From Minisyncoccota bacterium (lineage in GTDB: Bacteria > Patescibacteriota > Minisyncoccia > Phycocordibacterales > Phycocordibacteraceae), in NCBI GenBank assembly GCA_035627595.1, contig DASPLK010000005.1:3877-67876 (forward strand): 64,000 nt of DNA, read 5' to 3'. A program made the position numbers and the translations under genes. Positions 31,719-45,372 of this stretch are shown piece after piece (within the stretch, counting starts at the first letter, position 1; the number at the start of each line of letters is the position of its first letter). The notes beneath the pieces are model-generated. The model worked only from the letters and a program-made list of their open reading frames with translations. It was not told the origin of the DNA and ran no database searches.

Positions 31719-32873
31719 ATGCGTCCGCGCTTCGCTCTTTCTCTCGGCAATTTCTTCGTCTGCGTACACCATGCGCTGATGCTCTATATCACGACGCCCT
31801 TTCTGGCTACCGTGATGCCTGAGAATTTCATTGGCCTTGTTCTATCTCTAGGCGCACTCTTCTCGCTTTGTGCATTTCCATTTGTGCCGCGCCTCGTGCG
31901 CAACCTAGGCGCGAGGCGCCTAGCGTTGTGGAGCATAGGTCTCAGTGCCTGTTTCGTACTTTCTCTTGCACTTAACCTGCCGCCCCTTGCGGTAGTCTTT
32001 GCGTATGCGTTATTTTTTGCGCTTACCCCTATCAATGCTTATTTTCTCGACCTGTTACTCGAGGCAGCTACAAAAGGCGCCGGCGAAACCGGGCGCGTTC
32101 GTACGCTTTTCATTACCTTTGGTAATCTCGGGTACTTAAGCTGCGCGCTAGGTATAGGACTCCTGCTAGGCAGTGGAGACACGTACGCGAATATCTTCTA
32201 TATTGCCGCGGTCGCACTCATACCATTCCTTCTGATGCTTCGGTTCGCGCATGTGCCTGACGGTGATCCGCCACGGTTCGCGCACATCCTTGAGGTAGCG
32301 CATTGCCTCATCAAGGATAGAGATTACAAGGCGGTAGGTGTCGCATATCTCACGCTCCAGTTCTTCTTTAACCTTGTCCCGTATTTCATACCACTCTACC
32401 TCCACACGGTCCTCGGCATCCCCTGGAGCGAGCTTGGATGGATATTTGCCGTTATCGTCATACCGTTTCTTCTGCTTGAATACCCTGCAGGCTGGCTTGC
32501 CGATAAGGTATTGGGCGATCAGGAGCTTATGGCGATAGGCTTTCTTGTCATGGGCGCAGCGACTGCAGCGATCGCGTTCACAACGGCCGCAACACCCATT
32601 CTTGCCATTGGCGCTGTACTTTTTGTATCTCGCATCGGCGCGGCGCTCGCCGAAGCCATGTGCGAGACGCACTTCTTCAGACGCGTATCCGAACGCGATG
32701 CAAACTCGGTTGGGGTATTCCGCATGATGCGTCCCATGGGCGCTGTTGCTGCACCTCTTACCGCGAGTGTCTTCTTGAGCGTCTCAAGCTTCAACATTAT
32801 GTTTTTCGTGGTTGGCCTAGGCATCATTGTCTTTGGCGTTGCGGGAGCCCTCTCCATTAAGGATGTACGCTAG
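31719..32873 (+). CDS. MFS transporter
   Basis: 384 aa with 12 predicted TM helices. Confidence 0.8.
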   Translation: MRPRFALSLGNFFVCVHHALMLYITTPFLATVMPENFIGLVLSLGALFSLCAFPFVPRLVRNLGARRLALWSIGLSACFVLSLALNLPPLAVVFAYALFFALTPINAYFLDLLLEAATKGAGETGRVRTLFITFGNLGYLSCALGIGLLLGSGDTYANIFYIAAVALIPFLLMLRFAHVPDGDPPRFAHILEVAHCLIKDRDYKAVGVAYLTLQFFFNLVPYFIPLYLHTVLGIPWSELGWIFAVIVIPFLLLEYPAGWLADKVLGDQELMAIGFLVMGAATAAIAFTTAATPILAIGAVLFVSRIGAALAEAMCETHFFRRVSERDANSVGVFRMMRPMGAVAAPLTASVFLSVSSFNIMFFVVGLGIIVFGVAGALSIKDVR

Positions 32874-33673
32874 TCCTTGAGGCAATAGACGCCATTACGT
32901 TTTTCTACGAGACCCTCACGAACAAGTTTCAGAAGTTCCGCTGATACCTGCTCTTTCCGCTCTTCGCCTAGTATGGTGCTGAGGGAGCGCTTAGTGCCTG
33001 CCGCTAACGTGCGCAGTATGGCACCTCGAGCTTCACGGCTAGAACCCTTGAATGCGGTTTGTTTTACATACCCTCGAACTTTGTGGTTCGTGCGTACCCC
33101 GTTTCGCTTCAAGTGACTGCCGTAGTCCATGAGCGCCCACTGCCATTCTCGAGCCATGCCCTTAGGCTGCGCTTTCTCAAGCACTGTGCGTATCTCGCTA
33201 TCCGCAACCGACTCCTGGTCTTGGAAGCAGTGATGCACGATAACAGTGCGGATGTTCGTCTCTAAAAGTAGCGTGTCTTCGTTATATGCAAATGCGGCCA
33301 CAGCACCCGCGGTATACGGGCCTACGCCAGGCAAGCGCTCGAGTGCCACTGCCGTCTTTGGGAAACTGCCACCATATTCTGTGACAACTGTCCGCGCAGC
33401 CTCATGGAGCATCTTTGCTCTGCGGTTATACCCAAGTCCCTGCCACACTCGTAGTACATCCGAGAGTGGCGCATCTGAAAGCGTCTGGACGCTTGGGAAA
33501 CGCTTGAGAAACTTCCCGTAGTATGGAATGACACGCTCGACCTGTGTCTGCTGTAGCATCACCTCGGAGATAAGAATCTTGTACGGGTCGCGCGTCTTAC
33601 GCCACGGAAGCGTATGGCGTCCGTATTCTTTATAGTAGGAAAGGACGAGTGTCCTAAGCTTCCTCGGCGTCAT
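32870..33673 (-). CDS. MutY-like HhH-GPD DNA glycosylase (short form lacking the Fe-S cysteine cluster and the C-terminal MutT-like domain)
   Basis: YYKEYGRHTLPWRK, ISEVMLQQTQV (E37 equivalent), GLGYNRRAKMLHEAA and the LPGVGPYTAGAV helix-hairpin-helix are present. There are no Cys ligands after the HhH. Start chosen at MTPRK (33673); the ORF is open further upstream. Confidence 0.7.
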   Translation of the reverse strand: MTPRKLRTLVLSYYKEYGRHTLPWRKTRDPYKILISEVMLQQTQVERVIPYYGKFLKRFPSVQTLSDAPLSDVLRVWQGLGYNRRAKMLHEAARTVVTEYGGSFPKTAVALERLPGVGPYTAGAVAAFAYNEDTLLLETNIRTVIVHHCFQDQESVADSEIRTVLEKAQPKGMAREWQWALMDYGSHLKRNGVRTNHKVRGYVKQTAFKGSSREARGAILRTLAAGTKRSLSTILGEERKEQVSAELLKLVREGLVEKRNGVYCLKD

Positions 33674-33887
33674 TTGCGACCGACTCGACGTGAGTGATCG
33701 TTGAAGCCTCAGGGATGATGATAGCCGCGATGATATAGACGATAACACCCGGAATAATCGCAGAGAAGATAATGATGAGGAGATACGCGAGGCGCAGGAT
33801 GACCGGGTCGATATTAAAATACTCGCCCAGTCCGCCAAGGACGCCTGCGAATATTCTGTTCTCCCTGCTTCTGTAGAGTTTCTTCAT
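33654..33887 (-). CDS. PspC-domain protein
   Basis: 77 aa: RIFAGVLGGLGEYFNIDPVILRLAYLLI followed by a TM helix. Confidence 0.7.
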   Translation of the reverse strand: MKKLYRSRENRIFAGVLGGLGEYFNIDPVILRLAYLLIIIFSAIIPGVIVYIIAAIIIPEASTITHVESVANDAEEA

Positions 33888-33904
33888 CAGCCCAGTATAC
33901 CAAA

Positions 33905-34591
33905 TCAGGCTTCCAAGACCGCGTCCTTGACCTCTACCACTACCTTCCAGTCGTGCTGACGTGCATGTTTCAAGAGACGCTTGGTCGGATTGAACGCAAT
34001 CGCCTCGTCCACGAGCTCGAGCATGGAAATGTCGCTCTCGCTGTCGCCTACCGCGATCGAGTTCGTGAAGGAGAGCTTCTCCTTCTTCACCGCCCGCTGC
34101 AGTACCGATCCTTTATTGAATATGATGTGCTCGTCGACGATATTGCCCGTGAAGCGGCCTGATGCCCCAGTCTCAAAGAATATGCCGTAGCTCTTATCGA
34201 ACCCGAGCTCGTACCCGAATCCATCGACGATAAACTTCGGGGATCGTGAGACGGCAAGGAGGAAGTACCCTTCGTCTTTCAGCTCACGCACCAGATCCCG
34301 CGTATAGCGGAACACGTGATCCTTCTTCGCTTCGATGATCTCTCCGGCGATGTCCGCCACCTCCCCGTACGGAACGCCCTTTCCGTACTTTGCGAAAGCC
34401 TCTACGGTCTTGTCTATGTACGCATCGATGCCGGAGCCAGACTGCTCGTACTTCTGCTTTGCGGACGCATAATGCCTAGCTGCCAAAGGTGGCAGCACGC
34501 CCCTTCTAACAAGCTCCTCGACAAGCTCTCCGAGGAGAAAGGAGCGGGATAGGGTCCCATCTATATCGAACGCGGCGACAGATTGAGCCAT
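33905..34591 (-). CDS. HAD-superfamily hydrolase (subfamily IB-like)
   Basis: AAFDIDGTLS motif I and a GDSESD motif IV. Confidence 0.8.
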   Translation of the reverse strand: MAQSVAAFDIDGTLSRSFLLGELVEELVRRGVLPPLAARHYASAKQKYEQSGSGIDAYIDKTVEAFAKYGKGVPYGEVADIAGEIIEAKKDHVFRYTRDLVRELKDEGYFLLAVSRSPKFIVDGFGYELGFDKSYGIFFETGASGRFTGNIVDEHIIFNKGSVLQRAVKKEKLSFTNSIAVGDSESDISMLELVDEAIAFNPTKRLLKHARQHDWKVVVEVKDAVLEA

Positions 34592-34624
34592 TACGTATAT
34601 GGTACCGCATCATAAATGTCCACT

Positions 34625-34653
34625 TTGACTTTGGCCAAGGGCGGGCGTAGGGT
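34625..34653 (+). promoter_or_regulatory. putative promoter of the orphan ORF (TTGACT-17-TAGGGT) embedded in a G-tract leader
   Basis: TTGACT lies at 34625-34630 with TAGGGT at 34648-34653. Weak; the leader region 34639-34662 holds five GGG tracts. Confidence 0.25.
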
Positions 34654-34688
34654 GGGTACGGGAGATTGTTCCTGGGAGGGTTATAGAA

Positions 34689-35168
34689 ATGCAAACAGTT
34701 ATTCCGCAACTGGAAGCCGCCAACGTGGACCAGGCCGACCGGCTTGTCCAAGCGCTCGCTCGCCACGGCTTCATCGCCTCGGTGATCAAGCCGGACTTCT
34801 GCGACGACGCCAGCGATCCGCGGCCCTGCATCCCCGCCTTCAAGATGAAGGGCGGGAAAGAAGAGCAGGAGCGGCTCACCAATCTGGTGATCGCCTTCTA
34901 CGAAGACCATCCTGTGCCGGCCGACGACAACAAGTCGGACACGCAGCTGATGGTGGAGGCCCTGGACGACGACGAAGGTCTCGACCGCGAGCTCGAGTTC
35001 GAGTATGAGCTAGGCTTCAACGACACCGAGTCGATCGTCGGCCTGCCGTACGAGCTGTTCGAACACGTCGCGGGGCTGGGCGGTTCTATCGAGGACCGCC
35101 GCCAACGGAAGATGGGCCGGTTCGCCGACTTCCTGTTACAGCATCCTGTTCAACCCCGCGCCGAGTAG
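34689..35168 (+). CDS. orphan acidic protein (159 aa), compositionally foreign (very high GC3)
   Basis: GGGAGGG-8nt-ATG start. About 31 D/E against about 16 K/R residues. Nearly every codon ends in G or C, in contrast to the neighbouring genes. It is followed by its own intrinsic terminator. No recognisable family. Confidence 0.6.
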   Translation: MQTVIPQLEAANVDQADRLVQALARHGFIASVIKPDFCDDASDPRPCIPAFKMKGGKEEQERLTNLVIAFYEDHPVPADDNKSDTQLMVEALDDDEGLDRELEFEYELGFNDTESIVGLPYELFEHVAGLGGSIEDRRQRKMGRFADFLLQHPVQPRAE

Positions 35169-35180
35169 GCGCGGGAGCCG

Positions 35181-35220
35181 AGGCCGCCGTTCCCCAAAAG
35201 GACGGCGGCCTTTCCTATTT
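35181..35220 (+). terminator. intrinsic terminator of the orphan ORF (its tail overlaps the nth stop)
   Basis: AGGCCGCCGT(11-nt loop)ACGGCGGCCT is a 10-bp perfect stem followed by TTCCTATTT. Confidence 0.7.
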
Positions 35221-35883
35221 AGCTTTCGGCCACTTGAGTGCCGCTTCCGGATACAGCTTAGTCAGGGGATGCGCGGCACAGTCGTGCGGAAGTGCGGAGC
35301 ATACGTACCTACCGTAGAGGACAAGTCCGTTATTTACATATTTCCAGTCATCCTTGGGAGCGAGCTGTTCCAGGTCCTTAGAAATCTTCGTGAGGTCGGT
35401 GTTATCAGTAAGGTCAAAGCGGAGCGCAAAGCGCCTTACATGCGTATCAGTAGGAATACCCTCCCAAATGTCGTAGAGCTCGCCAAGAATGACGTGCGCG
35501 GTCTTGTACGCTACACCCGGCAGTCGTACTAGCTCCTTCTCCGTTTTTGGAACCTTTCCCTTAAACTCGTCGCGCACCATCCTCGCCGCAGCGACAATAT
35601 GCTTCGCCTTGGTCCTGTGGAAAGTAATAGAGGAGGTCTCCTTGCTGAAGGTTTCCACGTCCGCCTCCGCAAAATCGCTCACTGTCTTGTACTTCTTCCA
35701 GAGGTCTTTCGTAACGGCATTCACTTTCTTATCCGTACACTGCGCAGAAAGTATGACGCTTGCAACCAATTGAAATGGCGTCTTATAGGTGAGCTCGGTC
35801 TTGGGATCTGGATGTGCCTTCTTTAAATAAGTAAGCATCCTCTTCAAGCGCGCCTTGCGCTCCTTAAACTTCTCCGGACTCAT
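35215..35883 (-). CDS. nth: endonuclease III-like HhH-GPD glycosylase (Nth family) with a degenerate Fe-S motif
   Basis: LPGVAYKTAHVIL with the lysine, and a catalytic Asp in PTDTHVRR. Only two Cys residues (YVCSALPHDC) replace the canonical C-X6-C-X2-C-X5-C. Confidence 0.78.
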   Translation of the reverse strand: MSPEKFKERKARLKRMLTYLKKAHPDPKTELTYKTPFQLVASVILSAQCTDKKVNAVTKDLWKKYKTVSDFAEADVETFSKETSSITFHRTKAKHIVAAARMVRDEFKGKVPKTEKELVRLPGVAYKTAHVILGELYDIWEGIPTDTHVRRFALRFDLTDNTDLTKISKDLEQLAPKDDWKYVNNGLVLYGRYVCSALPHDCAAHPLTKLYPEAALKWPKAK

Positions 35884-36353
35884 GCAACGGACATGCTCTT
35901 AAGGTCCTCGAGTACCTCTGCAGCATGCCCTTCTGGCTTCACATTCTCATACACCTTTCGTATGACGCCTTGAGGATCAACTAAAAATGAAGTGCGCAGA
36001 ATGCCTTCGTATTCCCTCCCCATAAATTTCTTATCTCCCCACACGCCGTACGCATCAATTGCGACCCTCTCCTCGTCCGCCAAAAGCGGGAATGCGAGCT
36101 CGTACTTTTGAGCAAACTTCTTATGGCTTTTGACGCTATCAGCGGATATGCCGAGCACCACCGCACCCAAAGAGGAGAGATCTGGGTCCGCGTCTCGGAT
36201 AGCGCACGCTTCTTTGGTGCAACCAGGCGTATCGTCTTTCGGATAGAAATAGACCAGCACCCACTTTCCGCGGTACTGGCGAAGTGCGTGTATAACTCCA
36301 TCCTGGTCTGGAAGTGCAAAATCGGGAGCGGCTGTATCTACGGTTGGAATCAT
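35880..36353 (-). CDS. bcp: peroxiredoxin Bcp (PrxQ)
   Basis: FYPKDDTPGCTKEACA active site, about 157 aa from MIPTVD. Confidence 0.85.
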   Translation of the reverse strand: MIPTVDTAAPDFALPDQDGVIHALRQYRGKWVLVYFYPKDDTPGCTKEACAIRDADPDLSSLGAVVLGISADSVKSHKKFAQKYELAFPLLADEERVAIDAYGVWGDKKFMGREYEGILRTSFLVDPQGVIRKVYENVKPEGHAAEVLEDLKSMSVA

Positions 36354-36355
36354 AC

Positions 36356-37510
36356 CTATTCGTCGCGCCTCCACGCGAAGCGGTACGCGATCTTAGCAAG
36401 CGCGCCGGCACAAACGATCATAAATAGGAACACCACTAGTCCGCCAACGACAGGTATGAGGGTAAGAAGATAGAGGAGGAACATACCGAGGACCGCAGCC
36501 TTCCATGTTGTCTGGGTGCGGTTCGTCGCCACCTTAAGAAGTGCAGAGCCGGCTAGGAGTGCGGCGTACACGTATGCGAGCATGATAAGGAGAAGATAGA
36601 GCGCGAGGAGTATCAGCGCGACTCCAATACCAACGAAAGAAACCATGAGGAGGATGAGAAGTACTGGGGTTGCAACAAAGAGCGCGAACCCAAGAAGCGC
36701 GAGCATCAGGAGACGGCGAGGCTCCCTGATGAGCGTCATGGCAATCATGCGCTCCGAGAGACGCGGGAAGAGACCAACCACAAGCCCTGCGGCGACCAAT
36801 GCCGCGAGCGCTTTCACGAGGAAGAACACGCCAGCACCAGCAAGCGCATAGCGCGCAGCTTCCTCCTGTGATGGTAGATATGTCGCGGCTCCCGTGTATA
36901 CCGCACCACCCTCTATGACCGCTCCCTGTGCTATGGTCGCCTCTTGCGGCGCGTTGTAGCGGAATGCGCCTTTAATGCGCGTGCCATCCGCGACCGTAAC
37001 GCGGTCACTTGCTGAGACGGAAATATTTCCTGAGAACTCTCCAGCGATAAACACATCGCTTCCGTATACGGTGACGTTCCCCGTCGCACCTTGCGTGATG
37101 CGCACCGTTCCGCCCATGACCTGTATATCGCGCGCGGGGGCACTTACGAGGACCACGCCGCCAAGTGCTGCGACATCGCCTGCTACCGGAGCGCTGATGA
37201 TGACGCGCGCGCCAGCTGCGCGCGCGTCTCCTTCGACAGCGGCATCGATATCAAGCGTACCGCCAGCAAGTAGGACATCGCCTGCTACTGGCGCTTCGAT
37301 AACAATGTTTGCTCCGACTGCGGATAGATCAGCAGGAACAGGTGCTCGAACGGTAACGCTCGAGCCTGCCAGATAGGTATTCCCTGCCGGGACCTCGGAA
37401 AGTATGAGGTCGCGCTCGCCCTCGAGCGTAGCACCGAGTACGAGCCCCGGCGTTAGGAGGATGACGGCCATCAGTAGGAAACCGCGCATCATATGCATAT
37501 ATGGTATCAC
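36356..37510 (-). CDS. bactofilin-like beta-helical repeat domain fused to a multi-TM C-terminal domain
   Basis: Signal peptide, then repeated V-x-A-P-V-A-G-D-V/GG-T-L-D-I repeats typical of polymer-forming bactofilin-like folds, then about five TM helices. Its stop lies 2 nt from the bcp start. Confidence 0.5.
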   Translation of the reverse strand: MIPYMHMMRGFLLMAVILLTPGLVLGATLEGERDLILSEVPAGNTYLAGSSVTVRAPVPADLSAVGANIVIEAPVAGDVLLAGGTLDIDAAVEGDARAAGARVIISAPVAGDVAALGGVVLVSAPARDIQVMGGTVRITQGATGNVTVYGSDVFIAGEFSGNISVSASDRVTVADGTRIKGAFRYNAPQEATIAQGAVIEGGAVYTGAATYLPSQEEAARYALAGAGVFFLVKALAALVAAGLVVGLFPRLSERMIAMTLIREPRRLLMLALLGFALFVATPVLLILLMVSFVGIGVALILLALYLLLIMLAYVYAALLAGSALLKVATNRTQTTWKAAVLGMFLLYLLTLIPVVGGLVVFLFMIVCAGALAKIAYRFAWRRDE

Positions 37511-37575
37511 GCATGATCTCGAGGTCTACCCAGACCTTCACGGCCGCTTCCCCTATGGAATAGTATGGAACATAT

Positions 37576-37977
37576 ATGGATTCTACTGATGAAAAGGCTT
37601 GGAAAGAGAGGCTGAGCGAGGAGGAGTATCGCATTCTTAGAGAACACGGGACCGAGGCACCTTTCTCGGGTGCGCATTTAGATAATCACGAATCGGGCAT
37701 GTACCGCTGCAAGGCTTGTGGCACCGCTCTTTTCTCCTCTGATGCAAAGTTTGAGTCTGGGAGCGGCTGGCCTTCCTTCACTGATCCTGCGGTCGCGGAA
37801 AATGTCGGCCTGCGCGAGGACGCCAGCTACGGCATGCAACGCACAGAGGTCTTTTGTAAGAACTGCGGTGGGCACCTCGGACACCTATTCTATGACGGGC
37901 CGAAAGAAGCGGGCGGCAAGCGCTATTGCATCAACTCGGTGAGTCTTGAGTTTGAGAAGGAGTCTCGCACCCAATAA
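37576..37977 (+). CDS. msrB: peptide-methionine (R)-S-oxide reductase MsrB
   Basis: CKACGTALF, GWPSF and CKNCGGHLGHLF motifs, the last carrying the catalytic Cys. Confidence 0.9.
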   Translation: MDSTDEKAWKERLSEEEYRILREHGTEAPFSGAHLDNHESGMYRCKACGTALFSSDAKFESGSGWPSFTDPAVAENVGLREDASYGMQRTEVFCKNCGGHLGHLFYDGPKEAGGKRYCINSVSLEFEKESRTQ

Positions 37978-38935
37978 CGGTTCTACCGTCGCGTTCCATC
38001 TTCACCCGAGTCTCTTTGTATGAGAGTGTCGTATCGTCACGTACTTTCGTTGCAGTAACGGTCACTACAAGTCCGCAACTCACCTCTTCATTCCAGTACT
38101 GGTCAAATACAAAATTGCCGAGCGAATAGTATGCGCGCAACGTATCCATATCCTTCACAGAGCCAATTACATGTGGATGCGTTCCAATGACTAGGTTAGC
38201 GCCCGCATCCTTAAGCCGCGTAAGAAGTGCATCTATGCGCGGCGCAGGCTCCGTTGTGTACTCCTCACCCCAGTGCGCCATAACGACTATTAGATCCGCG
38301 CCGCTGCGTCTGGCGTCTCGTATTCCTTGCATCGTCCACTCCTCTTGCCATCCGAGGAATTCGTTATACCCGACGAATGCCGCCTTTATACCGTTCACCT
38401 CACGTACAACGGGTGCAATGTCTGCTCCGTTTGGGTCACCTATGTAGGCGATACCTGCATTTGTCAGATGGCGCTTTGTGCTTTCTACGCCTGATGCGCC
38501 GAAATCTCGCATATGATTGTTTCCAATCGAGACGAGATCAAATCCGAGCGACGAAAGCATGCTTGCTGAGGTCACGGGGAACGTGAAGCGCATATTATTC
38601 AGATCCCCTACTTTTGTACCCCCTGATACTGAGGCACTGTCTGTGATAGGTCCTTCAAGATTGCCCGCAGTCACATCCGCCTGTTCAAGGAGATCTCGAA
38701 CACCCCCAAAAACATGCATAGACCCTTTGGTCTGCAGCACTTGGCGTATGTACCTGTCGAGCATAATGTCGCCTACGAACACGAAGGTAGCGACCTGCTC
38801 TTCCGCGGGTTCTGCACTGGCGACCGACACATCAGAATGCTCCGCAATCGGGAACATGAAGAACAGAGATGCAAGGAGTACAGAGACTAATGGAACGGCA
38901 AGTATGGAGACTGCGTGCTCCTTGAAAAAGGTCAT
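37931..38935 (-). CDS. CapA-family (PGA_cap) metallophosphatase-fold protein
   Basis: Signal anchor followed by FVGDIMLDR...GNNH...HWGEEY...GTHPH motifs. Its 3' end overlaps msrB convergently by 47 nt. Confidence 0.72.
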   Translation of the reverse strand: MTFFKEHAVSILAVPLVSVLLASLFFMFPIAEHSDVSVASAEPAEEQVATFVFVGDIMLDRYIRQVLQTKGSMHVFGGVRDLLEQADVTAGNLEGPITDSASVSGGTKVGDLNNMRFTFPVTSASMLSSLGFDLVSIGNNHMRDFGASGVESTKRHLTNAGIAYIGDPNGADIAPVVREVNGIKAAFVGYNEFLGWQEEWTMQGIRDARRSGADLIVVMAHWGEEYTTEPAPRIDALLTRLKDAGANLVIGTHPHVIGSVKDMDTLRAYYSLGNFVFDQYWNEEVSCGLVVTVTATKVRDDTTLSYKETRVKMERDGRTVIGCETPSQTQDSPS

Positions 38936-39369
38936 AGGCGATGTCCGTACAGACGAAGTGCGCTCGGGAGCTGCGAGTGCAGGGGTTCAGGAAGTGCGTC
39001 AAGCGCAAACCATTGGATGTCATCAAACTTATGCGGTTCGCCATTTTGTACCTGAGCGCGATCTATACGCACCTTAAAATCAAGCGCTATCCAGTGTGTT
39101 TTCTCTCCCGCGTGTTCGCGATGCACATCGCGGTACCCGAGAAACTCGTACTCAAGCACGTCCGTGCAAAGCTCCTCCCGTATCTCCTTACGAAGGGTGT
39201 TCTCAACGGAGTCGTGAAGCTCGACCGCGCCAGCCCCGCCGTCCCAGGCACCGTGTTCATCACGACAGTTCGTGCTTCGCTTTTGAAGAAGATAGTTGCC
39301 TTCGCCGTCATGGCAGAGGTACGTAACGGTAATACCAATGTGATCGATTCCCTTTCTCATATGTGACAC
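38932..39369 (-). CDS. NUDIX hydrolase
   Basis: Nudix box GGAVELHDSVENTLRKEIREEL. Confidence 0.8.
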   Translation of the reverse strand: MSHMRKGIDHIGITVTYLCHDGEGNYLLQKRSTNCRDEHGAWDGGAGAVELHDSVENTLRKEIREELCTDVLEYEFLGYRDVHREHAGEKTHWIALDFKVRIDRAQVQNGEPHKFDDIQWFALDALPEPLHSQLPSALRLYGHRL

Positions 39370-39824
39370 GCTGCTTCGGGATGCTTTTCTGCATACCGCT
39401 GGTGGTATTCCTCAGCTCGCCAAAACGCAACCGCGGGTGTTACCTCTGTGGCGATGGGCGCCTGGTACTTAGGCGCAACTTCTTGTGCGACGCGCTCTGC
39501 AACCTCTCTTTGATTCTCGCTCGTATAAAAAATAGCTGAGCGGTATTGGGTGCCGACATCGGGCCCCTGTCTATTTACCTGCGTCGGGTCATGTATCTCA
39601 AAGAATCTCTGCACGAGCGACTCGTACGGAACGATGGAAGAATCGAAGAGCACATGTACCGCCTCGGCGTGTCCGGTCGCACCGGTGCACACCTGCTCGT
39701 ATGAAGGGTTCTCGCGTCTTCCGCCCGTATACCCGGACTCTACATCGATTACGCCAGGGACACTGCGAAAAGCCGCCTCCACTCCCCAGAAACACCCTGC
39801 TGCAAATACCGCTTCTTCCTGCAT
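39357..39824 (-). CDS. msrA: peptide-methionine (S)-S-oxide reductase MsrA
   Basis: AVFAAGCFWGVEAAF active-site motif. Confidence 0.9.
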   Translation of the reverse strand: MQEEAVFAAGCFWGVEAAFRSVPGVIDVESGYTGGRRENPSYEQVCTGATGHAEAVHVLFDSSIVPYESLVQRFFEIHDPTQVNRQGPDVGTQYRSAIFYTSENQREVAERVAQEVAPKYQAPIATEVTPAVAFWRAEEYHQRYAEKHPEAACHI

Positions 39825-40006
39825 GTAACCAGTATATCTCCCAGAAGGTTATAGGGGGTAGAGCGCCTTCCTCTTTGACAGCCTGCCGGACACCTCTCCC
39901 CATATCGGCAGGTATCTCCTGCCCGTATGGGGGGAGGAAGCAAGACGATGAGCGTCTTTGCGCGCGCTGGTCCCGCGCGTATAACGCCCTCCCCGATTAT
40001 CCACCC

Positions 40007-40228
40007 ATGCCATTCTTTCAGGCACTCGGGCTCGGGGTTGCAATCATCGTCTTGAAGCTTCTTACCCCCGTGCTCTTTTCCGAAATAGAAGCCACTGCCA
40101 TTCTTTTTCTGCGAGGCGCGCAGACCAGTGCTACAGCTGCCACAGAGCTCGCTGCTAGTGTCGGGCAAGTAAGGGTCGATAACGAGAGCCCTCTGGTACT
40201 GCCGCGCGCACCGCAGATACGCGAATAG
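40007..40228 (+). CDS. possible small membrane or hypothetical protein (73 aa)
   Basis: ATG 40007 (MPFFQALGLGVAIIVLKLL...) with a stop 2 nt before a strong bidirectional terminator. No SD. Low confidence; this could instead be a noncoding leader. Confidence 0.3.
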   Translation: MPFFQALGLGVAIIVLKLLTPVLFSEIEATAILFLRGAQTSATAATELAASVGQVRVDNESPLVLPRAPQIRE

Positions 40229-40229
40229 C

Positions 40230-40261
40230 AAACGGGCCGGACACAATTGTCCGGCCCGTTT
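40230..40261. terminator. bidirectional terminator hairpin
   Basis: AAACGGGCCGG(ACACAATTGT)CCGGCCCGTTT. Confidence 0.65.
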
Positions 40262-40271
40262 CCATTAAGCA

Positions 40272-40640
40272 CTAGTCCTGCTTCTTTGCCAGGAAGCTGC
40301 TGCCGATGAGAAGAACGGCAAGACCGACATGGAGCCAGTGGTCTGCATGATTCATATGAACGATGCCCAGGAGTTCTCCCTCTTCCGGAATCATGAGGAA
40401 GCCGAGCACCGCCAGCACGAGATACACGATACCGAGTATCATGAGCCACAGCGCCGAGGCTGCTTCATTTTTGAATGCGACCACAAGGAGAATCACACCG
40501 AACAATAGGTGCACGAGATTGTGCATGAGGTCGGTCTCGAACAAGGCACCTTCAGGGCCTACGAGCGGGTTTGGCACGAAGCCAAGGAGGCCGACAAGTA
40601 CGAACATGGCACCAAATACAATTGCGAGCGTTTTAGCCAT
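40272..40640 (-). CDS. DUF4383-like small membrane protein
   Basis: 122 aa with four TM helices; the N-terminus MAKTLAIVFGAMFVLVGLLGF. Confidence 0.5.
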   Translation of the reverse strand: MAKTLAIVFGAMFVLVGLLGFVPNPLVGPEGALFETDLMHNLVHLLFGVILLVVAFKNEAASALWLMILGIVYLVLAVLGFLMIPEEGELLGIVHMNHADHWLHVGLAVLLIGSSFLAKKQD

Positions 40641-40698
40641 ACAGAGGGTATCCGTTACTTTCTAAGGAATGCTCCGGAGCTAAGTATAGGCAGCGTCG

Positions 40699-41166
40699 CT
40701 AAATGCCAGATGAAGAGCCCTGGCCTCCTTTAAATGCGTTGGTTCCCTCCTTTTCCCGCTGATGTATCTCTTCCTCTGTAAGCCCAAAATAGTGGCCGAC
40801 CTCATGCCAGAGCGTCTCTGCGGTTACTCGGCGTATCGCCTCGTCAAATGTCTCTTCGCCATGCAGATCCTCCCGCGCCTCATCAAGAATGGGGAGACGA
40901 TAAAGCGTTATGGTATCCGGCAGGGTCATGCCGATCCCGTATCCCTCCCCGCGCTCAGTGTTTGGTATACCGCGGTATATGCCTAAGAGCGTTCCTTCTT
41001 CGACACCCTCCTCTACGAGCTCTGCGTCAGTCGGCGCATCTTCAACAAGAAGCGCCACATTCACAATCCGCTCTTTGTAAGGGGATGGGACGTTGTCCCA
41101 CATCTCATATGCAAGCTTGCTAAAGGCTTCGCTATCCATACACGCGATTATTCCCCGTTTCGCCAT
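40699..41166 (-). CDS. zinc metallopeptidase-like protein (COG3824/MtfA-like HExxH)
   Basis: 155 aa with an AETLWHEVGHYFGL motif. Confidence 0.55.
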   Translation of the reverse strand: MAKRGIIACMDSEAFSKLAYEMWDNVPSPYKERIVNVALLVEDAPTDAELVEEGVEEGTLLGIYRGIPNTERGEGYGIGMTLPDTITLYRLPILDEAREDLHGEETFDEAIRRVTAETLWHEVGHYFGLTEEEIHQREKEGTNAFKGGQGSSSGI

Positions 41167-41178
41167 TCTCGTCCACGC

Positions 41179-41868
41179 ATGGTTTATACTTGGCGGATGC
41201 GTATCAAAGCAGCACGGTTCGCGAAGTTTGGCGGCATCGCCATAACACTTGGCGTTCTCATCATCATTACGGTTTTCTTTGACCTCGAAGCGCTCCGCGA
41301 TCAGATTGCAAAAGCAGGTGTTTGGGCGCCACTCCTATTTATCCTTCTCAAGGCATCGACGGTTGTGGTTGCGCCGTTGTCTGGCGGACCTCTATACCCT
41401 CTTATCGGCGCATTCTTCGGGTTTGGGCCCGGCCTTGTATACGCCATCATTGGTGACTTTATCGGCTATACCATCGCCTTCTTCATCAGCCGTAAGCTCG
41501 GCTACCCGGTCGTACGCAAGTTCATCGAGAGTAACGAGCGCAGTCTTCTACCAAAGATCGTTAAGCACGTGGGCACGCCTGCCGGATTCTTTCAAGCATG
41601 CATCTCGCTTGGGTTCGTACCGGACCTCCTTTCTTATGGCGCCGGTCTTTCAAAGCTTCCCTATCCTATATTCATCAGTATCATCGCACCGCTATCTGCG
41701 GTTGTTTCTACTGTGCTTGTACTCCTTGGCGCATCCTTTGGCGACGGGGACTCTGCAGCACACTTCCTTATTGTTCCTGTAGTCGCCATTCTCTGTATGT
41801 CGGTAGGCGGATACTTCTTCTTGCGAGCAGTTACGAAGAAGGACCCTGCGGAACCCCCTACGCTTTAG
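41179..41868 (+). CDS. TVP38/TMEM64 (DedA/SNARE-associated) family membrane protein
   Basis: Multi-TM protein with PLSGGPLYPLIGAFFG and the conserved DedA core. Its start lies 12 nt from the divergent gene's start. Confidence 0.7.
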   Translation: MVYTWRMRIKAARFAKFGGIAITLGVLIIITVFFDLEALRDQIAKAGVWAPLLFILLKASTVVVAPLSGGPLYPLIGAFFGFGPGLVYAIIGDFIGYTIAFFISRKLGYPVVRKFIESNERSLLPKIVKHVGTPAGFFQACISLGFVPDLLSYGAGLSKLPYPIFISIIAPLSAVVSTVLVLLGASFGDGDSAAHFLIVPVVAILCMSVGGYFFLRAVTKKDPAEPPTL

Positions 41869-42395
41869 GAAGCGAATGTCGTGAACGCAGCAAGCGCTTT
41901 GTCGATATGCGCGAGCGTGTCTTCATCTACGAACCTGCCGTCCTGAACCTTATCTTGTGCAAACCCGACATAGAACTCAGGTTGGCCTAGTACGCGCGCA
42001 TCGAGGTAGAGAAGAATCTTCTTAAGCTCATACTGCGCAAGTGCGGTGGAAATGTTTCCGACAGACGCGCCGGCGATAAAGACAGGCTTCCCGACCCAGG
42101 CATTGTCGCCATAAGGGCGGCTTGTCCAGTCTATAAAGTTCTTCAACGCTGCCGTCGTTGAGCGATTGTGCTCAGGTGTCACCAGGATGACTCCGTCTGC
42201 ATTACGAATATCAGCCTTCACGCGAGACACCTCCTCAGGGAATGAGACCTCAAGGTCTTGGTTGTAGAGCGGAAATTGGATATCTCCCAACACAAGTGTT
42301 GTATCTTCGGGTGCGCGGTCAACAAACGCGCGAGCAAGTGCGGTGTTGTATGAGTCCTTACGTAGGCTTCCGGAAAAAACTAGAAATGTACGCAT
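41865..42395 (-). CDS. NAD(P)H-dependent FMN reductase (flavodoxin-like fold)
   Basis: VFSGSLRKDSYNTALARAF N-terminus, 176 aa from MRTF. Confidence 0.78.
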   Translation of the reverse strand: MRTFLVFSGSLRKDSYNTALARAFVDRAPEDTTLVLGDIQFPLYNQDLEVSFPEEVSRVKADIRNADGVILVTPEHNRSTTAALKNFIDWTSRPYGDNAWVGKPVFIAGASVGNISTALAQYELKKILLYLDARVLGQPEFYVGFAQDKVQDGRFVDEDTLAHIDKALAAFTTFAS

Positions 42396-42454
42396 ATGTG
42401 TATAGTTAAGGTCTTTTAATACCACGTGCGTAATGAAGACTAAGTGTGCATAAC

Positions 42455-42480
42455 AAAAGCGCCCCAGTTGGGGCGCTTTT
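42455..42480. terminator. bidirectional intrinsic terminator
   Basis: AAAAGCGCCCC(AGTT)GGGGCGCTTTT. Confidence 0.75.
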
Positions 42481-42500
42481 GCAGAACCAGTGAACTTTAA

Positions 42501-43187
42501 CTAGAGCTCTGCTTCAATAGCGGCCTTCACTACATCATAAGGCTGTGCGCCGTTGATGAAGGTAGTACCCAGAATGGAGCCAGGAGTGCCCTGGATACCA
42601 AGCCTCACACCCTCCTCATAGTCTGCGTCGATAGCAGCCTGGTACTCGGCCTTCTTATCGTTCATCAAGCGCTCGACGCGATCAGCATCCACGCCTTCAA
42701 TAGCAGCTGCGAGAGCCTTTACGTTTGGAAGCGTCTCGTCAGTGATACCCGCGACTGCCGTGTGCCACGCATTGAAGTGCTCAGGATATGCCTCCCACAT
42801 AGCGCGACCGAAGAGTGCCGTATTAGTTGAGTCCGGGCCCTGGAACTGGAAGTCCTTGAGGACGATACGGACCTTGCCCGTGTCAACGTAATCGCGCTTA
42901 ACCTGCGATAGGGTTTCGGTCTCAAACGACTTGCAGAATGGGCACTGGTAGTCGTACCAGACCGCCATAGTTACAGGCGCGGTCGGGCTACCGATGTATG
43001 GCGACCCTGCGGTCGTTACATTTTTAATATCAACCTCCATCTGCTGCGGCGCCTCGCCGCCGAGATCTGCTGTACGTGGTGCACCATTACCACCGAAGTA
43101 GAACGCTCCGCCTAGGATGAGCGCGCCTACGACAATGGAAAGCTGCATTGAATATTTCTCCCAGAAACTAGTTCCCTTCTCGGTCAT
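42501..43187 (-). CDS. DsbA-family thiol:disulfide oxidoreductase, membrane-anchored
   Basis: TM anchor followed by a WYDYQCPFCKSF CxxC motif. Confidence 0.8.
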   Translation of the reverse strand: MTEKGTSFWEKYSMQLSIVVGALILGGAFYFGGNGAPRTADLGGEAPQQMEVDIKNVTTAGSPYIGSPTAPVTMAVWYDYQCPFCKSFETETLSQVKRDYVDTGKVRIVLKDFQFQGPDSTNTALFGRAMWEAYPEHFNAWHTAVAGITDETLPNVKALAAAIEGVDADRVERLMNDKKAEYQAAIDADYEEGVRLGIQGTPGSILGTTFINGAQPYDVVKAAIEAEL

Positions 43188-43258
43188 ACGTAAATGCGTA
43201 GATACTTAGTAGCAACCCTACTAGGATACCCCCTTGCCGCCCGTTCCCAAAGCGGGGA

Positions 43259-43684
43259 CTATGCGGCTTTCTTTGTGGTTTTGGTCGCTTTCTTTGCAGA
43301 TTTCTTAACGGCTTTCTTTGCGGTGCTCCCTGCCGAATCCAGCTCTCGTCCAAGCTCCTGCCAGTTCTTCTTTAATTCTTTCGCGGCAGCCTTAAGTTCC
43401 TGGGCATCCACGTTTCTTGCGCCGACATAAGCGGCTGCGGCAGTGTCTACGATCGCAGCAACTGAGTGCTTATCCAGCTTCTTGAGCTTTTTTGTCTCCT
43501 TTAGCACATCTGCCTTCATGCCCCGCGCCCACTTGGCAGCGGCAGCGCGATGTTTCTTCGCATCCTTTGCACCATAGAAGTAGTATGTCGCCGCTGCGGC
43601 GGCACCAGCAGCAACTATTCCCGCTCCTATTTCTGCGGCAATAATCGCATCTTTGTTCTTTGTACTTCCTTTCTTTGTTGCCAT
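43259..43684 (-). CDS. Ala/Lys-rich hypothetical protein (YtxH-like?)
   Basis: 141 aa, low-complexity K/A-rich with an N-terminal hydrophobic stretch. Confidence 0.45.
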   Translation of the reverse strand: MATKKGSTKNKDAIIAAEIGAGIVAAGAAAAATYYFYGAKDAKKHRAAAAKWARGMKADVLKETKKLKKLDKHSVAAIVDTAAAAYVGARNVDAQELKAAAKELKKNWQELGRELDSAGSTAKKAVKKSAKKATKTTKKAA

Positions 43685-43703
43685 AAGTATTACGTTTTAC
43701 TCG

Positions 43704-43976
43704 CTACCGCAGATTCGTGATCAGACGCCTTCCTGCCTTTGTTACGAGCGAAAGAAGATTTCCCACTTTGAACCCTTCTATCCGCGCCTTCGCGCGCACA
43801 TCATCGATGTCGCTGATAATCGCCTTGGCCTCACCCTCCACGTCGCGCGCAATTCGTTCGAGAGTTCTCAGGAGCCGCACGACGTAAAAGAGCACGAGCG
43901 CAATAAGTGCGCCAATGACGATGACCACGATAGTCGTCACGATAAAGAAGATGTCCATCTGTAGAAATGCGTCCAT
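43704..43976 (-). CDS. DUF948-like small membrane protein
   Basis: 90 aa with an N-terminal TM helix and an amphipathic tail. Confidence 0.5.
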   Translation of the reverse strand: MDAFLQMDIFFIVTTIVVIVIGALIALVLFYVVRLLRTLERIARDVEGEAKAIISDIDDVRAKARIEGFKVGNLLSLVTKAGRRLITNLR

Positions 43977-44033
43977 GTCTGCCGGCTAATGTTCGCAGTA
44001 TCGGCTGAAAGAGCTGTAGCACGCATGAATAGC

Positions 44034-44069
44034 AAAAGAGCGCTCCGTGTTGGAGCGCTCTTTTGTTTT
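44034..44069. terminator. bidirectional intrinsic terminator downstream of the helicase gene
   Basis: AAAAGAGCGCTCC(GTGT)GGAGCGCTCTTTTGTTTT. Confidence 0.75.
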
Positions 44070-44073
44070 AGGC

Positions 44074-45372
44074 TTAACGCTTCTCGATGAACGTGAGCGC
44101 CTTGCCGGTCTTGCCCGCGCGGCCGGTACGGCCGATGCGGTGGGTATAGTCCTCGTACGTACCCGGGAGATCGAAGTTGATCACGTGGGATACGCCCGAG
44201 ATGTCGAGGCCGCGAGCCGCGACATCGGTCGCAACCAGCACCTGGACATGGTCAGCCTTGAAGAGGCTAAGTGCCTTCTGGCGCTTACCATGGGTCTTAT
44301 CGCCATGGATGCTTTCTGCCTTCACACCTGCACGCATGAGGTCCTTAGTGAGACGCTCGACGCCATGCTTGGTGCGTCCGAAGACAAGCACCTTATCGAA
44401 CTCAGGGTTCTTCAGAAGGTCCACGAGAGTCGTGAACTTCTGCTCAGAGCCGTTACAGTAGACGACGTCCTGATCGATGGTTGCCGCGGTCTCCCGGGTC
44501 TTAACCATGATGCGGACTGGGTCCTTAAGGAAGTCGCCGATGAGGCGCTCGATATCGCGCGACATGGTCGCGGTGAAGAAGAGCGTCTGGCGATCCTTGG
44601 ACATCTTGCCGACGATGAAGCGCATGTCTGGGATGAATCCCATATCGAGCATGCGGTCTGCCTCATCGAGAACGAGTGTCTCGAAGTCTGCAAAGTTGAG
44701 CTCGCGACGCTCCTCAAGGTCCTTCAAACGTCCCGGCGTACCGATGACAAATGCAGGCTTGCGACGTAGCTGGCGGATCTGCGGCTCAAGGCCTGCGCCA
44801 CCCACACAGACGACTGCGGAGATACCGAGACGCTTAGCGAATCCGTAGAACTCGGCCTCGATCTGGATAGCGAGCTCGCGGGTCGGTGCCATGATAAGGA
44901 TACGCTCATCCTTCCCAAGCGCGCGCATCTTCAATACCTTGTCGATGAGCGGAATAAGGAAGGACGCGGTCTTTCCGGTACCGGTGTTTGCGATACCGAC
45001 GACATCCTTACCCTGGAGCACCTCCGGAATAGACTGGTCCTGGATCGGAGTCGGGGTCATGTATCCCTTGCCGAGTATGTTCTCCTTCAGCTGGCTGTCG
45101 ATCTTGAAGTCAGCAAAGGTGTGCACCGGAGCGTACACCTCCACCTCCTGCTGAGGCTGAGCCTTGTTAATGAGCATCGAAATATCGACGTTCATTTCCT
45201 GATAGTTGCGCTTGCCACGAGAGTTGCCTCCCGAGCGAGGTGCGCCTCCTCCGCCTGAACGGCGAGGAGAGGAGCTGCCTCCGCCCTTGCGGCGGCGCTG
45301 GCCCTCAGGAAGAGGACCCTTGTAGTGACGAGGCGGACGTGCGTCCGTACGTCGGATATATGTTATAGCCAT
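44074..45372 (-). CDS. DEAD-box ATP-dependent RNA helicase with an Arg/Gly-rich N-terminal low-complexity region
   Basis: Q-motif (FADFKI...TPIQ), GTGKT, DEAD (VLDEADRMLDMGF), SAT (TAT), HRIGRTGRAG. Start chosen at MAITYIRR (45372). The track ORF extends to 45795 but would run through a promoter-like element, a 15-bp hairpin and the upstream gene. Confidence 0.85.
   Translation of the reverse strand: MAITYIRRTDARPPRHYKGPLPEGQRRRKGGGSSSPRRSGGGGAPRSGGNSRGKRNYQEMNVDISMLINKAQPQQEVEVYAPVHTFADFKIDSQLKENILGKGYMTPTPIQDQSIPEVLQGKDVVGIANTGTGKTASFLIPLIDKVLKMRALGKDERILIMAPTRELAIQIEAEFYGFAKRLGISAVVCVGGAGLEPQIRQLRRKPAFVIGTPGRLKDLEERRELNFADFETLVLDEADRMLDMGFIPDMRFIVGKMSKDRQTLFFTATMSRDIERLIGDFLKDPVRIMVKTRETAATIDQDVVYCNGSEQKFTTLVDLLKNPEFDKVLVFGRTKHGVERLTKDLMRAGVKAESIHGDKTHGKRQKALSLFKADHVQVLVATDVAARGLDISGVSHVINFDLPGTYEDYTHRIGRTGRAGKTGKALTFIEKR

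Follow-up and report, generated by a model that had tools for sequence, protein, structure and literature searches.

An acidic, GC-rich gene beside nth in a Paceibacteria genome probably carries an allele exchanged with a GC-richer sister lineage

We asked how a single gene of foreign base composition came to lie among the native genes of an uncultivated Paceibacteria genome. The gene is an open reading frame (ORF) for a protein of 159 amino acids (aa), located at 34689-35168 on the forward strand of a 64,000-nucleotide (nt) stretch of contig DASPLK010000005.1 (Minisyncoccota bacterium, assembly GCA_035627595.1), here called the window. An initial annotation had presented it as an orphan, wedged as a single-gene island between the genes for a HAD-family hydrolase and the endonuclease III-like glycosylase Nth, and had proposed recent horizontal acquisition or an engineered or assembly insertion. 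The ORF and its GGGAGGG-8nt-ATG start are present as described there, and the protein is strongly acidic, as had been noted, with 33 D+E against 16 K+R residues, a net charge of about -17, and an isoelectric point of 4.47. Its GC content is 0.625 and its GC content at third codon positions (GC3) is 0.818, the most extreme value among the 66 ORFs of the window (mean GC3 0.603, standard deviation 0.063). Given its own amino-acid sequence and the codon usage of the window, a GC3 of 0.602 ± 0.039 is expected (z = 5.4-5.5), and the observed value was reached in 0 of 3000 simulations, which bears out the suspected outlier.

Scanning metagenomes, we found a contig (L063, JGI sample Ga0196976) that is collinear with window positions 34824-41161 at 79% nt identity and carries an ORF fragment 96% identical to the window's in protein. 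Together with contigs L065 and L066 on the left side (L066, which shares its metagenome with L063, stops after the first 24 codons of the ORF), it represents the closest relative of the window, a lineage of 62% GC that is collinear with it over 13 kb at 79-81.5% nt identity. Within this background, a tract at 34520-35215, from the 5' end of the HAD gene through the divergent promoter region and the ORF to the terminator, is 85-96% identical to the GC-richer sister lineage at the nt level. Sliding identity inside the ORF is 92-96%, and a 340-nt window of the ORF is 93.2% identical, compared with 78.2 ± 3.5% (maximum 87.1%) in 280 windows of the flanks. The tract includes non-coding promoter sequence: the promoter, leader, and first 24 codons are 88-93% identical to L065/L066. 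Its right edge is sharp, with identity dropping at 35199-35224, where the terminator and the Nth stop codon lie, and on the left a patch of 73% identity at 34460-34519 sets the edge at about 34520.

The same contrast appears gene by gene. Over 114 codons, the ORF differs from that of L063 with a synonymous divergence (dS) of 0.255 and a non-synonymous divergence (dN) of 0.023, at 93% nt and 96% aa identity. The corresponding values against L063 (nt identity, dS, dN, aa identity) are 82%, 1.51, 0.047, and 91% for Nth; 78%, 1.55, 0.102, and 85% for Bcp; 81%, 0.99, 0.063, and 89% for DUF8173; 76%, 1.2, 0.143, and 80% for MsrB; 76%, 2.8, 0.091, and 85% for PGA_cap; 77%, 2.7, 0.093, and 86% for NUDIX; and 74%, 2.4, 0.131, and 79% for MsrA. 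In the left flank, dS against the sister lineage is 1.34 for PspC, 1.33 for the MutY-like gene, and 1.82 for MFS. The probability of seeing as few synonymous differences in the ORF against L063, at a proportion of synonymous differences (pS) of 0.55, is 7e-10, and that of as few non-synonymous differences at the expected rate is 2e-12. The HAD gene is intermediate and patchy against L065 (87% identity, dS 0.63, blocks of 73% to 95%), with a GC3 of 0.71 in the window (z about 3.3) and 0.82 in L065, which may reflect an earlier exchange of its own. Base composition follows the sister lineage as well: neighbouring genes have a GC3 of 0.66-0.88 in L063/L065 and 0.52-0.73 in the window, and the ORF set against L063 has a GC3 of 0.88 there and 0.83 in the window. 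Among the ORF differences, sites with AT in the window and GC in L063 outnumber the reverse by 15:6, which matches the flanks (733:299) and is the pattern that amelioration in a lower-GC host would produce. The left-side contigs L066 (JGI) and L065 (ENA) and the right-side contig L063 (JGI; L063:1) all end within the ORF, at window positions 34760-34824, which suggests that several alleles coexist or that the protein's variable loop is micro-diverse.

The ORF bears the marks of a coding gene. Against L063, 17 of its 23 differences lie at codon position 3 and 5 amino-acid changes result in the called frame, compared with 6-20 in each of the five other frames; the -1 frame has only 6, yet it contains in-frame stops in both the window and L063. 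Together with a dN/dS of 0.09 against L063, these comparisons indicate that the called frame is the coding frame and mark the ORF as a real gene under purifying selection. Between L005 and L064, two contigs of relatives that share an allele type, ORF dN is about 12 times that of Nth, and ORF dS is 0.21 vs 0.38 for Nth. Between the window and L064, which carry different allele types, the ORF has a pS of 0.60 and a dN of 0.45, and Nth has a dN of 0.134. With a dN above that of Nth in both comparisons, a dS in the L005/L064 pair comparable to that of Nth, and third positions that saturate between allele types, the ORF normally evolves faster than Nth and shows no strong synonymous constraint. Against L063, ORF dN is half that of Nth, though otherwise it is 3 to 12 times higher. 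These data indicate that the ORF allele coalesces far more recently than the genomes that carry it, which points to recombinational exchange.

Wider searches left little of the orphan or of the wedged-in island. A word-indexed search of 5.8 billion proteins returned the ORF protein itself only (NCBI record HYE23405.1, 'hypothetical protein, Candidatus Paceibacterota'), and an exhaustive HMMER search of 1.84 billion cluster representatives recovered about 14 full-length relatives of 140-176 aa at 32-47% identity. They share the motifs RHGF, PCIPxF, RLTDLxIxFY, DTxL, ELEFxxELSF, LPxEIF, RxIExRY, and RFAxFL, and every member is acidic (net charge -4 to -21). A protein of 2337 aa (P0015) was also matched in this search through six short acidic stretches corresponding to query residues 67-102; it looks like a low-complexity artefact rather than a homologue. 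We compared all contigs that could be retrieved for the relatives (L002-L009, L058-L062, and L064), and in every context the family member occupies the same slot in the same orientation, as at least 11 related contigs show; L006 and L008 stop at the ORF, and adjacency to Nth was judged on contexts that reach that side. Gene order in relatives is MFS(+), MutY-like(-), PspC(-), sometimes HAD(-), ORF(+), Nth(-), Bcp(-), DUF8173(-), in some cases VKOR, and MsrB(+). Nth (35215-35883, reverse strand; Pfam HhH-GPD) is the invariant convergent neighbour of the family. The divergent neighbour, HAD (33905-34591, reverse strand; Pfam HAD), is missing from the slot in L004, L007, L008, L009, and L060, which argues that HAD, and not the ORF, is the variable neighbour.

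The family is narrowly distributed. No member was found in GTDB representative genomes, by a pattern scan or by a hidden Markov model (HMM) search over 48 Nth-anchored loci, and none of 50,697 phage records, 72,556 plasmids, and the IMG/VR contigs contained a relative. On a tree of Nth, one clade of 18 members includes 7 carriers and the 33 members outside it include none, and the carriers are not monophyletic. Pairwise identities of the ORF and Nth are uncorrelated (Spearman 0.22, not significant, narrow range). In the 48 Nth-anchored GTDB-representative loci, the slot is empty or holds unrelated small ORFs, a D-Ala-D-Ala ligase, or 200-400 nt of non-coding sequence; the empty form, with a gap of about 30 nt between Nth and HAD, occurs only in some other species. 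These comparisons describe an uncharacterised, fast-evolving accessory family that appears confined to one Paceibacteria (Kaiserbacteria-like) clade and patchy within it.

We therefore favour, at a probability of about 75%, the reading that the ORF is a real resident gene of this slot whose allele in the window was imported by recombination from a GC-richer sister lineage. A low-divergence tract lies between collinear flanks, gene-specific constraint is not apparent, and the composition is donor-like, as expected of allele import. Horizontal acquisition, as first proposed, thus holds in the form of an exchange, supported by the tract identity; it fails as a recent insertion of a new gene, since the slot is filled in relatives. 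The tract at about 34520-35215, with allele, promoter, and terminator, would have been exchanged by homologous recombination long after the split between the two genomes, plausibly through natural transformation and RecA-type recombination, and the imported allele would now be slowly ameliorating towards its lower-GC host. Such an exchange would explain the foreign composition of the ORF. Judging from composition, import from the GC-rich lineage into the lineage of the window is the most likely direction. Patescibacteria keep recombination and competence genes, and the horizontal gene transfer detected in them comes mostly from other Patescibacteria (PMC12455944).

Several points weigh against this reading or limit it. 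The flank dS values of 0.8-2.8, set against 0.255 for the ORF, are saturated under NG86, and the differing GC3 of the two genomes inflates them; the contrast in raw identity between tract and flanks is independent of them. The sister tract was pieced together from L063 and L066, a pair of contigs from a single metagenome that both end inside the ORF, and codons 25-45 of the sister allele, in the 63-nt gap from L066 to L063, lie outside the comparison. The direction of transfer is read from composition alone, and a third donor to both lineages is possible. L005 and L006 carry high-GC3 alleles inside low-GC genomes, which would need several imports or some gene-specific GC pressure. The tree of Nth has poor resolution (215 columns; carrier monophyly in 0 of 60 bootstraps) and so does not distinguish a single gain followed by losses from repeated transfer, and no relics of the family are detectable in empty or differently filled slots. 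The junctions are known at the level of assemblies, with a small residual probability of a chimera, and on the side of function a DNA-mimic or immunity role finds no positive support in sequence, profile, or fold searches.

If the allele had instead been inherited vertically, synonymous selection specific to this gene would have had to keep its GC3 high and its divergence low while the genome drifted to lower GC, through high-expression codon bias, mRNA structure, or GC-biased gene conversion. The consensus-like -35, strong Shine-Dalgarno sequence, and strong terminator of the ORF suggest good expression, and the high-GC3 alleles of L005 and L006 would fit such selection. So would the over-dispersion of GC3 among native window genes, of which RNR, RNase J, and LemA have high z-scores; for RNR and RNase J these are similar to that of the ORF because the genes are long, their absolute GC3 being 0.70-0.73 (at most 0.76 with LemA included). 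However, codon choice in these three genes has a zLL of +4 to +9, whereas that of the ORF is not enriched for the commonest codons of the window (zLL -1.4). High GC3 also does not travel with the gene: the ORF exceeds its neighbours in the window (+0.21), L004, L005, and L006, is native-like in L002, L007, and L009, and falls below its neighbours in L003, L058, and L061. We rejected a systematic elevation across the family (mean difference +0.07, Wilcoxon p = 0.15), and since the difference between ORF and neighbours varies in this way, high GC3 is not a fixed property of the gene. What recurs is extremity, the ORF being the GC3 extreme of its own locus in 7 of 10 informative loci vs 3.5 expected (P = 0.023), so that its composition is decoupled from the host across loci. 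The synonymous divergence of the L005/L064 pair, comparable with that of Nth, the saturation of third positions between allele types, the halving against L063 of a dN that is otherwise several times that of Nth, and the likewise elevated identity of the non-coding promoter region all speak against vertical inheritance, which we regard as unlikely.

A chimeric assembly, in which the ORF segment of a co-occurring GC-richer relative was spliced in at conserved leader and terminator sequences, would find such sequences on both sides of the ORF; the sister-lineage assemblies do break within the ORF, and a second family member (P0011) comes from SRR7003764, an adjacent run accession. An independent Logan assembly of SRR7003767, whose contig begins inside HAD at 34185, a start that could itself be held to favour a chimera, is nonetheless 100% identical to the window over 34185-44947 and crosses both junctions unbranched, an agreement between two assemblies (the 155-kb contig of the metagenome-assembled genome and the Logan contig) that holds at the assembly level. 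A second assembler thus reproduces what had been suspected to be an engineered or assembly insertion. A chimera would moreover require two crossovers within about 700 nt and a return to the same background, no exact match to L063 at the right edge reaches 31 nt, and the graded mosaic divergence of HAD is what a real recombination history would leave; we give this explanation only a slim chance. For a new insertion from a distant donor or a mobile element, such as an anti-restriction or DNA-mimic gene of a phage or plasmid, the outlier composition and the small acidic protein could be cited. The homologues in the same slot, with conserved promoter and terminator, and the confinement of all known members to one Paceibacteria clade contradict it, as do the empty searches of phages, plasmids, and viral contigs and the lack of a PHROGs or PADLOC match. 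Nor does the window contain an integrase or flanking direct repeats, as had been reported from the outset, or a tRNA; of the features of a foreign island, the composition is present, and insertion between otherwise adjacent genes and signatures of mobility are not. The syntenic homologues of native composition in L002, L007, and L009 are what the initial annotation itself had named as telling against a foreign island, and a distant origin is now largely refuted and very improbable. That the ORF is a GC-rich non-coding stretch could be argued from the several overlapping frames that the GC-rich sequence keeps open, but comparative data already refute it and leave it a negligible chance: the 14 or more homologues are conserved over their full length with in-frame indels, dN/dS is low, the third-position substitutions are specific to the called frame, the codons show the coding signature GC1 > GC2 < GC3, and an Rfam scan of the window region around the ORF gave no match.

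The ORF was described as a self-contained transcription unit, and its signals agree. A sigma-70-like sequence at 34625-34653 on the forward strand (-35 TTGACT at 34625-34630, a 17-nt spacer, and -10 TAGGGT at 34648-34653) is its predicted promoter. A TTGACA-type -35 and a TAnnnT -10 align in 6 of 8 aligned relatives, and L058, L060, and L061 show the same hexamers by eye; the window's -10 is too weak for a consensus scan to register. It is followed on the same strand by a conserved leader motif, GGGAGATTGTTCC(T) at 34660-34673, directly 5' of the Shine-Dalgarno sequence GGGAGGG at 34674-34680, which stands 8 nt before the ATG at 34689 and is kept in relatives as an equivalent GGAGG. The family consensus of the leader, GGGAAATTGTTCC, is kept in sequence at 9 of 11 loci. 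As RNA it would form only a weak hairpin (-2.5 kcal/mol), and an RNA structure is not supported, no compensatory changes being found among the compared loci; the motif is not enriched elsewhere in the window, hence gives no sign of a regulon. Downstream, where the ORF and Nth converge, a hairpin at 35180-35212 on the forward strand separates the two stop codons. Its stem has 13 base pairs, of which 9 are G-C, its free energy is -33.8 kcal/mol (z = -3.0), and its T-rich tail runs into the Nth stop codon at 35215-35217. The stem core, GCCGCC/GGCGGC, is all but unchanged over 11 loci, with compensatory changes in 5 of 12 pairs, and the T tail lies on the ORF strand in most loci, the Nth strand having no clear tail. 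With its G+C-rich stem, T-rich tail, and covariation, the element has the properties of a rho-independent terminator, and it is also the right edge of the tract shared with the sister lineage.

Some details of these signals deserve mention in their own right. The GC-rich promoter spacer and -10 (GGCGGGCGTAGGGTGG, window 34625-34660) are common to the window, the sister lineage (L065), and L005/L064, and other relatives have AT-rich spacers instead. L005/L064 carry an ORF allele only 50% identical to that of the window despite this shared promoter type, and for this reason promoter type and ORF type appear to recombine independently. The annotated N-terminus of P0003 (L005:114-644), 'MLPWEGYT', is the translated leader and Shine-Dalgarno motif, and its true start is probably a downstream GTG; the mechanical ORF L064:84-797 is over-extended in the same way.

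The neighbourhood itself is as first described: Pfam confirms HAD, two HhH-GPD glycosylases (Nth-like and MutY-like), Bcp (AhpC-TSA), and also PspC. The locus lies in a conserved cluster of redox and oxidative-damage genes (window 32870-45000, and L007) that includes MutY-like, Nth, Bcp, DUF8173/bactofilin-like, MsrB, NUDIX, MsrA, FMN reductase, and DsbA/thioredoxin-like genes, with VKOR in addition in relatives. The C-terminus of Nth in the window and in its orthologues in L063 and L064 reads YVCSALPHDCAAHPL, with only two cysteines. Canonical endonuclease III has a four-cysteine [4Fe-4S] loop, and the Nth of the window may be an Fe-S-free enzyme of this type. The mechanical MutY-like ORF at 32870-33838 (322 aa) overlaps PspC and has a low-complexity N-terminus; because its orthologues have only 267-269 aa, its real start is probably near 33679. 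The slot on the downstream side of Nth, up to HAD or the MutY-like gene, varies in content across Paceibacteria (L010-L056): where it is not empty, it may be occupied by small convergent ORFs unrelated to the family in L018, L024, L037, and L052, by a membrane protein in L010, and by the D-Ala-D-Ala ligase in L041, L043, L044, and L056. One non-coding version, of the 200-400 nt class, is conserved between L019 and L023, the slot sequence of L027 has long-range complementary ends, and Rfam found no match in the non-coding slot fillers of the relatives. A glmS ribozyme (Rfam RF00234, 52.6 bits) on a Kaiserbacteria contig, L046:2721-2914, is unrelated to the ORF.

We also considered what the protein might do. 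It matched nothing in Pfam, NCBIfam, PHROGs, PADLOC, or PDB sequences, and contains no transmembrane or signal-like segment (top 19-residue Kyte-Doolittle mean 0.94). AlphaFold models of the ORF protein and of a member without the loop insertion (predicted local distance difference test (pLDDT) scores 71 and 66; predicted template modelling scores 0.65 and 0.63) share two confidently predicted elements, an alpha-beta-beta-alpha module at the N-terminus and a long helix at the C-terminus, and the conserved acidic middle (residues 87-117, including an alternating, strand-like ELEFEYELSF motif) has a pLDDT below 50 in both. The protein has no catalytic motifs and is under purifying selection within allele types. 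On the strength of its expression signals, acidity, lack of catalytic motifs, patchiness, fast evolution, and exchange between lineages, it could be, rather than an enzyme, an inhibitor- or immunity-like protein that binds stoichiometrically to a partner that is basic or binds nucleic acids, a possibility worth holding but one we would not bet on. Fast evolution, allele exchange, and acidity are compatible with DNA-mimic or immunity roles. More speculatively, and with clearly lower expectation, the family might be a hypervariable, exchanged inhibitor or immunity type whose conserved acidic beta-strand region, ELEFxxELSF, would bind and neutralise a basic DNA-binding protein, with negative frequency-dependent selection driving turnover of alleles in the fixed slot; candidate partners would be the HhH-GPD glycosylase next to it or, in an epibiotic way of life, nuclease toxins or proteins of phages that the cell encounters. 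That the protein acts specifically on the glycosylases encoded beside it is improbable at best.

What looked like an alien gene thus becomes a documented case of allele exchange between diverged, uncultivated Paceibacteria lineages, with a donor-like relative identified, and offers direct genomic evidence that Paceibacteria with reduced genomes swap short chromosomal tracts. It also carries a caution, as the GC3 outlier alone would have been misread as distant horizontal transfer or as an artefact. The family is new and unnamed, and the process, recombinational allele exchange, is of a known kind. A small protein family is thereby defined at a fixed address beside base-excision and oxidative-stress genes, and its fast evolution and patchy presence, a profile often seen in conflict-related genes, make it a tractable candidate for biologists of the Candidate Phyla Radiation (CPR).

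Among known systems, the family resembles the lineage-specific hypothetical families of CPR/Patescibacteria in its 'hypothetical protein' label, narrow taxonomic range, and lack of a Pfam or NCBIfam assignment, but differs in having a fixed slot, conserved regulatory signals, and documented exchange between lineages. DNA mimics (Ugi, SAUGI, p56, Ocr, ArdA, DMP12, and DMP19) are likewise small, strongly acidic, and cytoplasmic, and the ORF has genes for DNA glycosylases beside it; with SAUGI, a glycosylase-inhibiting mimic encoded on a chromosome is already known (PMC3902945). In contrast to them, the family is not found on phages or plasmids, its acidic segment 87-117 is unmodelled and its binding role predicted, and the protein resembles no solved mimic in sequence, profile, or fold, a criterion that is supportive only, as DNA mimics are not one homologous family. 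To our knowledge, glycosylase mimics target uracil-DNA glycosylase rather than HhH-GPD enzymes. Immunity proteins of polymorphic toxins (colicin Im, CdiI, Tsi, and orphans) are also small, acidic, and cytoplasmic, evolve very fast, pass between lineages, and have a patchy distribution. Here, however, no toxin gene adjoins the ORF in any context, the neighbours always being PspC or HAD and Nth, no Pfam immunity family or PADLOC entry matches, and overall dN/dS is well below 1. The closest likeness of process is recombinational allele replacement, a gene-specific sweep at a variable accessory locus, classically described at surface-antigen, restriction-modification, or pherotype loci. The present case differs from these in its cytoplasmic product and its setting in uncultivated Paceibacteria known from metagenome contigs alone, but it shares their features: a short tract far less diverged than its collinear flanks, a composition that matches the donor lineage, highly divergent allele types between conserved flanks, and tract edges in or near conserved sequence, here the terminator hairpin and the promoter region.

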